DNA of 23,719 bases from a virus (lineage: Duplodnaviria > Heunggongvirae > Uroviricota > Caudoviricetes), in IMG/VR virus record IMGVR_UViG_2671180296_000011, positions 1 to 23,719 of that record; one strand, written 5' to 3'. The notes below the pieces were generated by a model. It was not told the origin of the DNA. It ran no database searches and was given only the letters and a program-made list of their open reading frames with translations. Position 1 is the first letter of the stretch; each line of letters opens with the position of its first letter. This document shows positions 3,039-4,132 of this stretch, piece after piece. Both the position numbers and the translations under genes were made by a program.

Positions 3039-3166
3039 GGATATTTATCAGGATTTATCGGTTCCGAATCCCTGGATATGTTAAGTCTTCAGCCCGCCAG
3101 TGGTGGGCACTGGTGTTTTACCTGATGGCTGAAATATATCTGACAATTCCCGTCGAGGATTTAGCA

Positions 3167-3481
3167 ATGTATAACGATGAACATAAATATACCGCCTGCA
3201 TGCAGGCCATGAATGAACAATTTAAATCAGCATTCCTTAAACTCATTCAGCAAAACCACGAAGCAGTAAAATCCATTCAGGCTGAGCCGTATGGACACCT
3301 CACACCACCAACTCTCGACATTATGTCCAGAATATTAACACCAGCCATGCTTCTACGTCTGAAAGACAATATAAATGACTGGTTAAACGAAGAATTAAAC
3401 TACCTTGAATGTGAGTGGGATCATCATTACGCCAAATCACAAAAAGAACGCATCTTCCGTCGATTATCCGGCAACAGATAA
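3167..3481 (+). CDS. hypothetical protein (104 aa), AT-rich moron, antisense to lysis operon
   Basis: ORF from MYNDEHKYTACMQAMNEQFK... with GAGGA about 9 nt upstream. Start placed at internal Met of the 3113..3481 ORF. Region is AT-rich. No family recognised. Confidence 0.4.
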   Translation: MYNDEHKYTACMQAMNEQFKSAFLKLIQQNHEAVKSIQAEPYGHLTPPTLDIMSRILTPAMLLRLKDNINDWLNEELNYLECEWDHHYAKSQKERIFRRLSGNR

Positions 3482-3490
3482 CGAGCCAGC

Positions 3491-4132
3491 TTATATACGT
3501 CCTTTAAGATAAGTCAGTCCTGGATGAAACCAGTAAGCCGGCACTTTTTTAAAGGGCGGATTATCAAAATCACGAAGAAGAGCCTCCCGCACAACTGCAT
3601 CCTTGTCCGCACCACTGGCCAGCGCTTCAATCTCAGCAGCTACCTGCAGATATCCCATGCAACGACCAATGCGCTTCATTAGTCCCTGCTTTTTATTGTT
3701 CTTCAGGTAATCAATGGCAAATTCAATGAGCGCCTCACTGTGCTGGTGCGATGCTGGTGTTACTTTTCCATCTTCACGGATCGTGATATTCCAGTCATCG
3801 CTTGTCACAATAAAAGATGGCCGATTATCCCCCCATTCCTGGTCTTTATCCGGTGCAGACGCAATAAAATAACGTTTATTGCCTTCCTCTCCGGCACTTT
3901 TAACTGTAATGGAGTACTTTTCTGACAATGCGGTCGGTAAAAACTTTTCCTGCAAAATCTTCGCAAAGGTCCTGCGAGCAATTTTGATGCAATCATCGTA
4001 AAACGCTGCTTCCTGCTCATCGCGGCGTTTTTTTTCATCTTCAGAAACCATCAGCACCGACAGTTTTTTATTCAGTTCAGTGATTTCATTTTCCAGGCAA
4101 CTTATGCGCTGATTCATTTCTTCATGGTTCAT
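3491..4132 (-). CDS. hypothetical protein (213 aa) with N-terminal coiled-coil-like segment, between holin and endolysin
   Basis: Long uninterrupted ORF MNHEEMNQRISCLENEITELNKKLSVL... starting 3 nt after the holin stop, on the same strand. No family recognised. Confidence 0.5.
   Translation of the reverse strand: MNHEEMNQRISCLENEITELNKKLSVLMVSEDEKKRRDEQEAAFYDDCIKIARRTFAKILQEKFLPTALSEKYSITVKSAGEEGNKRYFIASAPDKDQEWGDNRPSFIVTSDDWNITIREDGKVTPASHQHSEALIEFAIDYLKNNKKQGLMKRIGRCMGYLQVAAEIEALASGADKDAVVREALLRDFDNPPFKKVPAYWFHPGLTYLKGRI

Follow-up and report, generated by a model that had tools for sequence, protein, structure and literature searches.

A pair of convergent genes, here called X and Y, lies between the holin gene S and the endolysin gene R of a lambdoid, Shiga toxin (Stx)-type prophage of Escherichia coli, and the convergent pairing is, to judge by the relatives compared, conserved, though the linkage is not absolute. 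The stretch under study (hereafter the window) covers positions 1 to 23,719 of the IMG/VR record IMGVR_UViG_2671180296_000011, i.e., 23,719 nucleotides (nt), and its positions 2950-4500 are 99.8% identical to the stx2g-carrying prophage of E. coli 06-00048. We propose that X and Y form a conserved accessory module arranged as a noncontiguous operon within the Q-dependent late operon, in which Y would be an effector of the lysogenic phase and X its late partner or antagonist; we hold this reading tentatively and would give it a little less than an even chance. Y is preceded by a leader which is itself conserved and common to Y and many other cargo genes.

S, X, R and Rz all lie on the minus strand and Y on the plus strand, nested between X and R (Table 1). 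The ATG of X stands 3 nt past the holin TAG and its ribosome-binding site (GGAG, about 8 nt upstream) is supplied by the 3' end of the holin gene, while a scan of the window detected no terminator-like site between or near the stops of X and Y. An opposite-strand gene within a co-directional operon, with no isolating terminator, is the layout of a noncontiguous operon, and it is the layout found here. The original prediction, made from the letters of the window, had described this arrangement correctly in its coordinates, its open reading frames (ORFs) of 213 and, convergently, 104 amino acids (aa), its gap of about 1.1 kb (1097 nt from the holin stop to the R start), its 3-nt and 9-nt spacings and the lack of a terminator between the two stops. 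It had called the insert AT-rich, which proved true only in moderation: the G+C content is 43.8% (Y 40.0%, X 44.2%), against 53-54% in S, R and Rz and 47.8% in the whole window.

The adjacency of S21- and R21-type genes that was assumed as the normal state was confirmed, as S and R were about 4 nt apart in most of the 362 phage records with this S/R cassette (e.g., VT2-Sakai); the Stx1a, Stx2c and BP-4795 phages have the order S-YdfR-R. The notion of a one-off insertion had to be given up: roughly one complete E. coli genome in five has an X-family gene, usually fused to the domain DUF1327, between S and R, and X-like DNA was present in 1131 of 5426. Y is rare (95 of the same 5426 genomes, 134 places), and only 4 of the 362 S/R phage records had the X/Y arrangement over at least 80% of the query. 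In all 41 Y-encoding IMG/VR loci, Y was located between R and an X-type gene, with a 9-nt gap wherever it was measurable; X was frameshifted in two of them.

The pair was suggested to be one module, and the comparison of BP-4795 (S-ydfR-R) with phage 86 supports this. The two are 97% collinear up to the last ydfR codons, where phage 86 has 878 extra nt, past which the two sequences align again, in the stop region of ydfR and in the ydfR-R spacer. This single indel, bordered by the 8-bp repeat CTGAAGA(C/T), extends ydfR in frame by a linker plus the X C-terminal domain and further contains the 9-nt spacer, the oppositely oriented Y and the Y leader, and a ydfR-end-like stretch of the window marks one of its edges between the S-ydfR-R and S-ydfR::X-Y-R cassettes. 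Between the window and the phage-86 type, identity was 68% for Y and 81% for the X C-terminal domain, with 93-95% for the flanking S and R; the X-Y block is thus much more diverged than S and R, which fits an exchange of the block as a unit.

The pair also recurs in Salmonella and other prophages. At distant Y loci (Salmonella, Logan and ENA contigs), we recovered a tail-to-tail X homologue with 39-43% identity that keeps the coiled coil and the GRCM.LLQ.AAEIE...DNPPFK..GW..PGV.YLK motifs. Salmonella enterica prophages (L057, L066, L069-71) have the order Q ... X (166-321 aa) and convergent Y (105 aa) across a 19-nt gap, followed by holin-lysozyme-Rz; X and Y overlap by 33 nt upstream of a lambda-S-type holin (PF05106) in the Logan contigs L062-64, and by 18 nt upstream of an HP1-type holin (PF16080) in L065. 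Across relatives the stops were separated by gaps of 9, 11 or 19 nt or overlapped by 8, 18 or 33 nt. The pair was thus found in two positions, upstream of the holin or in the holin-endolysin gap, and with three holin families (PF04971, PF05106, PF16080), so that neither a new position nor another holin family has broken the pairing up.

Each gene also occurs without the other. X without Y is frequent (1131 genomes have X-like DNA, only 95 have Y), and Salmonella L068 retains X and only a remnant of the leader. Y is found with a decayed or deleted X in L058-61, L020/21 and L194-196: an intact Y stands beside a 65-aa X remnant in the P0136 lineage, and a Y with altered C-terminus lies directly between S and R, X being deleted, in the P0137 lineage (L194-196). 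In the readable lineages the neighbour of Y is always an X-type gene or remnant, except in L194-196 (the contigs L192 and L193 are too short or unclear). This pattern would best fit a Y that benefits the host and an X that is needed only for lytic growth, and it argues against X as a toxin that needs Y. A toxin/immunity pair had been one of the suggestions of the original prediction; X would then be a toxin of the late phase, acting in abortive infection or in shutting off the host, and the lysogen would make Y as an antitoxin against leaky X. The convergent, mutually exclusive layout would suit such a pair, and other toxin-antitoxin systems (HicAB, ParE, hok/sok) occur both in these late-leader regions of related prophages and in other parts of the window. 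However, roughly one E. coli genome in five (more than 1000) has an intact X and no Y, Y is kept where X has decayed although an orphan antitoxin is not expected to stay intact, neither protein matches a toxin or antitoxin domain in Pfam or an entry of PADLOC, and the genes are convergent instead of forming a co-directional bicistron. We thus consider a toxin-antitoxin-like pair very improbable.

X comprises an N-terminal coiled coil (residues 1-60 approximately), a variable middle (about 61-100) and a conserved C-terminal domain (about 101-213) with the motifs GRCMGYLQVAAEIE and DNPPFKK..W..PG..YLK. It matched phrog_1085 (function unknown, E=2.1e-101) over profile positions 117-296 of 296. 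PF07041 (DUF1327/YdfR) did not match the X of the window even at E<=0.1, whereas it matched the X homologues of phage 86, PhiR5_1, BP-4795 and Stx2_95 with E=1e-40 to 1e-46. Many of the 189 X homologues carry this N-terminal PF07041 fusion, and most relatives are in-frame combinations of DUF1327, coiled coil and X C-terminal domain, 268-333 aa in length. The X of the window is a DUF1327-less member of a family of mosaic YdfR-family/phrog_1085 proteins. The ratio of nonsynonymous to synonymous substitution rates (dN/dS) in the C-terminal domain was 0.20-0.40; X is under purifying selection and is a real gene. It is soluble, with no transmembrane segment or lipobox (maximal 19-residue Kyte-Doolittle hydropathy 0.76), and an AlphaFold2 model based on 36 homologues had a predicted local distance difference test score of 50. 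A GTDB pattern scan recovered X in Escherichia and Shigella only, a scope set by the patterns used, and a profile search later found Salmonella members.

The DUF1327 protein YdfR of the Qin prophage, encoded between essQ and rrrQ, and ORF47 of BP-4795 occupy the same S-R slot on the same strand as X, and X homologues fused to DUF1327 are named "YdfR family protein" by NCBI; the X of the window differs from them in lacking DUF1327. Residues 1-72 of Qin YdfR bind the catalytic N-terminal half of RNase E, and YdfR co-purifies with RNA (PMC13232886). In open-access text, we found no experimental data on the X/YdfR family beyond these residues, a part with no counterpart in the X of the window, and no literature linking ydfR to holin or endolysin; only one paper there named DUF1327. 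The NCBI Prokaryotic Genome Annotation Pipeline (PGAP) often calls the X fusions truncated YdfR pseudogenes and annotates only the YdfR part, although the ORFs are intact. Thus L005 2886-3692 (E. coli O104:H4 2011C-3493) and L006 2500-3393 (S1-ZIM-01-A) hold intact fusion ORFs of 268 and 297 aa, which are labelled "YdfR family protein, incomplete, missing C-terminus" over their first 336 nt only. The X domain is hidden by this systematic error of annotation, through which intact fusions of 268-297 aa are misread.

Y starts at ATG 3167, a conserved start with GAGGA 7 nt upstream that gives 104 aa. Longer frames from GTG 3113 or ATG 3125 (122/118 aa, PGAP calling 118 aa) are absent in the relatives L007-L009, which have CTG and a 1-nt indel. 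The 315-nt frame was free of indels in every intact homologue read as DNA, with variants 65-85% identical, and dN/dS was 0.24-0.52, with a single value of 0.66 for a near-identical pair differing at 7 sites; Y is under purifying selection and is a real gene. It matched phrog_1853 (function unknown, E=8.4e-47), and a profile search of 1.84 billion representative proteins yielded 19 relatives, several of about 105 aa, with 26-49% identity. Y is predicted to be a soluble five-helix bundle, with no hydrophobic segment or lipobox (maximal 19-residue Kyte-Doolittle hydropathy 0.94); no informative fold match was obtained. Homologues and coding signal are thus present for both genes (phrog_1085 and phrog_1853 matches, dN/dS 0.2-0.5). 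That neither protein is recognisable, as the original prediction had it, was upheld by Pfam, NCBIfam, PADLOC and PDB sequences, which gave nothing informative: X had nothing above noise in Pfam, NCBIfam and PADLOC, Y had no match in Pfam and NCBIfam and only a chance-level Cas6b in PADLOC (E=0.015), and neither had anything below E=0.07 against PDB sequence profiles.

The leader of Y combines a -10-like box, two hairpins (B and C), a pair of short boxes that can form a stem and a Shine-Dalgarno sequence (Table 1). With a profile of the leader, nhmmer found a single copy in the window, at 2997-3132, with E=2e-21, a value inflated because window-like copies were in the training set. Distant Y loci (Salmonella, Logan) share TCAGCCCG(C/T)CAGTG-loop-CACTGG(C/T)G upstream of Y, with a GGCTGA box after the hairpin that can pair with CAGCC, and a Shine-Dalgarno sequence and start codon about 50 nt past the hairpin; the leader of L065 has a compensatory stem variant, GCCAGA/TCTGGC. 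Hairpin C was rejected as an intrinsic terminator of the plus strand, because its stem is conserved and its U-run is not (TTTT in the window versus CACTCA, TTCAAC or CTTAAC in homologous leaders). To see it as a mere remnant of the ydfR 3' end was only partly right, since it overlaps the ydfR stop region of BP-4795 and also occurs upstream of Y in loci without ydfR. We found no Rfam family in the insert or leader, the search of window positions 2900-4600 giving only a sub-threshold Esr41 match directly upstream of S (39 bits versus a gathering score of 102), and no mention of the leader hairpin sequence in open-access text.

An exact hairpin pattern scan of IMG/VR gave at least 119 loci on viral contigs, with cargo ORFs called mechanically; since the pattern was exact, part of the matches was listed and the prophage collections are redundant, this census cannot show covariation. 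Among the matches listed, cargo ORFs start 47-50 nt past the hairpin and belong to at least 25 unrelated families of 57-210 aa, almost none with a Pfam match, and a Y-like cargo was present in 3 of 116 loci. From 5' to 3', the canonical leader consists of a hairpin (the opposite-strand terminator), hairpin B (CAGGGT..ACCCTG), TAAGGT, 7 nt, CAGCC and hairpin C, then AGAGG-GATGGCTGATTA-CCTCT, AAGGA and ATG; the leader of the window lacks the canonical late-sense terminator and has the R start codon in its place. Among the unique leaders listed, a TAnnnT hexamer 7-8 nt before the hairpin was present in all 67, and GGCTG, in most cases 18-20 nt past the hairpin, lay within 45 nt in 65 of 67. Position 3 of the stem is U·G on the cargo-sense strand, and C·A on the late-sense strand, in 64 of the 81 leaders among the matches listed, which favours a cargo-sense RNA. 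RNAalifold supported hairpin C alone, with no compensatory pairs, in this set biased by exact-pattern selection.

Canonical leader copies, unannotated, were found in 218 of the 5426 E. coli genomes, and leader cassettes stand antisense among tail genes (in L146 between a gpI-like gene and gpJ), beside tape-measure genes and beside endolysins. Within the S-R slot, three convergent ORFs unrelated to each other stand behind the same 76 nt, which adjoin R and contain hairpin C: Y, a phrog_2572 ORF of PhiR5_1, for which no relationship to Y was found, and an unannotated ORF of about 210-233 aa in the Stx2a phage Stx2_14040. The last (L055 451-1152, +) has at most 233 aa, or about 210 aa from an ATG behind AGGAG, with the conserved hairpin upstream; about 250 nt of it coincide with the 3' part of an annotated 161-aa X-like gene, so that one of the two ORF calls is probably wrong. 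It had no match in Pfam, PADLOC or PHROG, and a 210-aa relative of it is the cargo in L167. The description of a two-gene insert stood as regards the pairing, but Y is one of many alternative cargos behind a conserved leader. On our reading, the X-Y module would not be core lysis machinery; it would occupy a recombination-prone cargo slot, whose leader is common to unrelated orphan genes.

Several features of other leader loci were noted in passing. Late-strand neighbours of other cargos (L113, L175, L072 and others) are 74-111 aa long, and some of them start with a "MTLEQRVESLEKEL" coiled coil resembling the X N-terminus; a relationship between this N-terminus and the "LEQRVxxLE" neighbours was not retained, as hhalign matched only a 17-residue coiled coil with a probability of 34%. 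Some late-strand neighbours end in "..SSELFSQLS" and overlap the cargo 3' end by 47 nt. At L119 9302-9375 (-) and equivalents, i.e., in the upstream half of the canonical leader, the late-sense strand has a hairpin, an AU-rich stretch and a GC hairpin with a U-run, resembling the 3' end of a small RNA; in Rfam the canonical leader gave only isrK, at 15.6 bits versus a gathering score of 50 and on the opposite strand, a weak resemblance that falls in this late-sense half.

A broader proposal is that the leader acts as a portable "socket" of 130-170 nt, previously undescribed, made of a -10-like box, a hairpin (CAGCCCGYCAGTG..CACTGGYG), a CAGCC/GGCTG stem and a Shine-Dalgarno sequence 47-50 nt downstream. 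Enterobacterial lambdoid prophages would use it to insert dozens of unrelated orphan genes, in antisense orientation, at tail and tape-measure as well as holin and endolysin sites of Q-dependent late operons. Lysogens would express every such cargo until late read-through silenced it; X-Y would be one effector/antagonist pair of this system, and the cargo set would be an unmined reservoir of exclusion, defence or counter-defence proteins. We regard this generalisation as possible but somewhat doubtful.

For X and Y themselves, the proposed effector/antagonist module would work as follows. X, which lies on the late transcript and is placed for translational coupling to the holin, would appear alongside the lysis proteins and not before induction. 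Y would be transcribed from a weak sigma-70 promoter in the leader, with the -10-like box 7-8 nt before the 5' hairpin; we infer from this weak promoter and structured 5' end that Y would be made in the lysogen. Read-through by Q-modified RNA polymerase would collide with, and be antisense to, the transcription of Y, which would thus be shut off exactly when X is made. The most likely role of Y would be in superinfection exclusion or in defence against phages; X, through its C-terminal domain, may be the late-phase partner or antagonist of Y, letting the lytic cycle of the prophage itself proceed. An exclusion module tied to late transcription, which was also among the suggestions of the original prediction, would best fit the architecture and the two precedents, Tai/Ati and Tha/Ith.

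In phage phi80, Tai/Ati constitutes a tail assembly inhibition defence and its counter-defence (He et al., Nat Commun 2024, PMC11364771); tai is antisense in the Q operon and expressed in lysogens, ati is on the late operon, and overexpression of Q lowers Tai (PMC11364771). As with X and Y, an accessory gene is antisense in the Q-dependent late operon of an E. coli lambdoid phage, near lysis/packaging genes, and has a late-strand partner. The phi80 genes, however, are head-to-head and overlapping (L191 3866-4480, -, and 4461-4691, +), whereas X and Y are tail-to-tail; the antisense gene has 204 aa in phi80 against 104 aa here, the size relation being reversed; and phi80 has no conserved leader. 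The tha/ith pair of the Staphylococcus aureus phage 80α has effector and inhibitor on opposite strands, with mutually exclusive lysogenic and lytic transcription, which for X/Y is proposed only, and only with this antisense arrangement are immunity and autoimmunity kept in balance (Rostøl et al., Nat Microbiol 2024, PMC11087260). It differs from X/Y in its Gram-positive host, in its location in the lysogeny (cI) module instead of the late operon, and in its domains, Tha being a HEPN RNase and X and Y having none that is recognisable.

Lambdoid morons such as lambda bor, which is antisense downstream of Rz, are a third point of comparison, being autonomous accessory genes among late genes, often antisense and prophage-expressed. 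HK97 gp15 is another such gene (cited in PMC11364771). Unlike the classical morons, which are single genes with individual promoters, Y has a 130-170-nt leader common to at least 25 unrelated cargos and a conserved late-strand partner. The X-Y locus is not a known system; it fits an antisense accessory gene, or noncontiguous operon, in a prophage late operon, and its new features are the conserved convergent partner gene and the conserved portable leader.

Several results weigh against the effector/antagonist module. A sigma-70 consensus scan (9/12) upstream of Y in the window and the Salmonella loci passed no site, the best candidate having 7/12; a TAnnnT hexamer, however, stands at a fixed distance before the hairpin in all 67 unique leaders listed, and the Salmonella leader has a promoter candidate, TTGATT-16-TATAAG. 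Alignments of X and Y with the Tai/Ati proteins of phi80, gp52 (204 aa) and gp51 (76 aa), gave hhalign probabilities of 0.1-0.5%, i.e., no homology. At least two lineages have kept Y but not X, and in most X stands without Y. Across the 116 leader loci among the matches listed, cargo clusters combine freely with neighbouring late genes, so that the late neighbour is not cargo-specific and the adjacency of X and Y alone is weak evidence. X is also found fused to DUF1327, the reported RNase E binder (PMC13232886), which hints at an independent late function of X.

The last three of these observations, together with the unrelated convergent ORFs that fill the S-R slot of PhiR5_1 and Stx2_14040, speak for X and Y as independent neighbouring morons: X would be a YdfR-family derivative with a late role of its own (e.g., RNA decay via RNase E), Y one of many leader cargos, and there would be no coupling. 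Against such independence, Y adjoins only an X-type gene or remnant where neighbours are readable, bar L194-196, the pair moves together to another position and other holin types at about 40% identity, and the X of the window is without DUF1327 altogether. We judge this explanation rather unlikely, if one to be taken seriously.

It may also be considered, as the original prediction did for endolysin expression under convergent transcription, that the pair regulates lysis, the holin-coupled X and/or antisense transcription from the Y leader across the 5' untranslated region of R tuning lysis timing or endolysin dosage. The pair always directly adjoins the holin or endolysin, X has the translational-coupling position that R has in VT2-Sakai, the Y leader doubles on its other strand as the 5' untranslated region of R, and there was a faint coiled-coil match to phrog_1193, an XhlA-type "hemolysin" (E=0.06), the sole hint of a lysis protein. 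However, both proteins are devoid of transmembrane and lipobox features, the module is absent from most phages with the same S and R, the same leader-cargo cassette stands among tail genes, far from lysis genes, and the Salmonella pair precedes the holin and thus cannot act specifically on R. A role in lysis control therefore seems improbable to us.

If the effector/antagonist module is confirmed, a role would be assigned to a family that has no label beyond "YdfR family/hypothetical" and that occurs in roughly one E. coli genome in five, Stx phages among them, in which the genes of the late transcript are co-expressed with toxin release and lysis. It would also be the third, sequence-unrelated example, and the first convergent one, of an effector/antagonist noncontiguous operon logic by which prophages defend their host without harming themselves. 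The leader would then offer a simple sequence handle, one exact pattern having led to 119 or more viral contigs and no fewer than 25 families of orphan proteins, and could be used to harvest candidates for lysogeny-expressed genes and to build lysogeny-to-lysis reporters.

Table 1. Features of the X-Y locus and other features of the prophage, in window coordinates.
Feature	Position	Strand	Remarks
S21-type class II (pin)holin gene S, 71 aa	4136-4351	-	PF04971, E=1.2e-31; dual start MYQM (M1, M4)
Gene X, 213 aa	3491-4132	- (lysis strand)	phrog_1085; between holin and Y
Spacer between X and Y stops, 9 nt	3482-3490		without terminator
Gene Y, 104 aa	3167-3481	+	phrog_1853; antisense to the late transcript, convergent with X
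Conserved Y leader	3039-3166	+	opposite strand is the 5' untranslated region of R
Hairpin B	3049-3074	+	leader
-10-like box TATGTT	3077-3082	+	leader
CAGCC box	3090-3094	+	leader stem; can pair with GGCTG, 3127-3131
Hairpin C (CGCCAGTG/CACTGGTG)	3095-3115	+	leader; detected by hairpin scan
Shine-Dalgarno GAGGA	3155-3159	+	leader
ydfR-end-like stretch, reads ..PPLAG-stop	3089-3106	-	collinear with the last ydfR codons of BP-4795, ..TPPLA-stop
Signal-arrest-release (SAR)-type endolysin (lysozyme) gene R, 177 aa	2505-3038	-	PF00959, E=2.7e-24; next late gene downstream of X/Y
Small ORF, 43 aa	2023-2154	-	between R and Rz; hydrophobic stretch
Small ORF, 60-86 aa	2167-2427	-	between R and Rz; hydrophobic stretch
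Esr41-like match	4492-4582	+	sub-threshold; directly upstream of S
STnc100 small RNA match	4648-4846	-	149 bits; upstream of holin, late strand
TerB-domain protein gene, 143 aa	5073-5504	-	PF05099, E=2e-16; between tRNA genes and holin
tRNA-Arg(TCT)	5678-5754	-	between methyltransferase and TerB genes
CAT-anticodon tRNA	5856-5931	-	between methyltransferase and TerB genes
sok antitoxin RNA match (hok/sok type I)	11776-11950	-	116 bits
DicF antisense RNA match	18914-18965	+	74 bits

The counterpart of R in the 06-00048 locus is annotated as lysozyme. The two small ORFs between R and Rz are annotated as hypothetical in 06-00048, and other phages hold ant or KilAC genes in the R-Rz gap; these ORFs may be further accessory genes of the lysis cassette. 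Transfer RNA (tRNA) genes are usual downstream of Q in Stx-type phages, and of the two in the window the one with the CAT anticodon was called Met by ARAGORN, the equivalent position in 06-00048 being annotated as tRNA-Ile. At the position of the TerB-domain gene, the 06-00048 prophage carries the A and B genes of stx2g, and the TerB gene looks like an alternative cargo at the Stx locus. The E. coli-type prophages L194-L196, which carry Y without X, have at this stx position of Stx phages, just upstream of the S21 holin, a gene for a 263-aa ADP-ribosyltransferase enterotoxin-like protein (L194 3413-4204, -; PF01375 Enterotoxin_a, Scabin-like).

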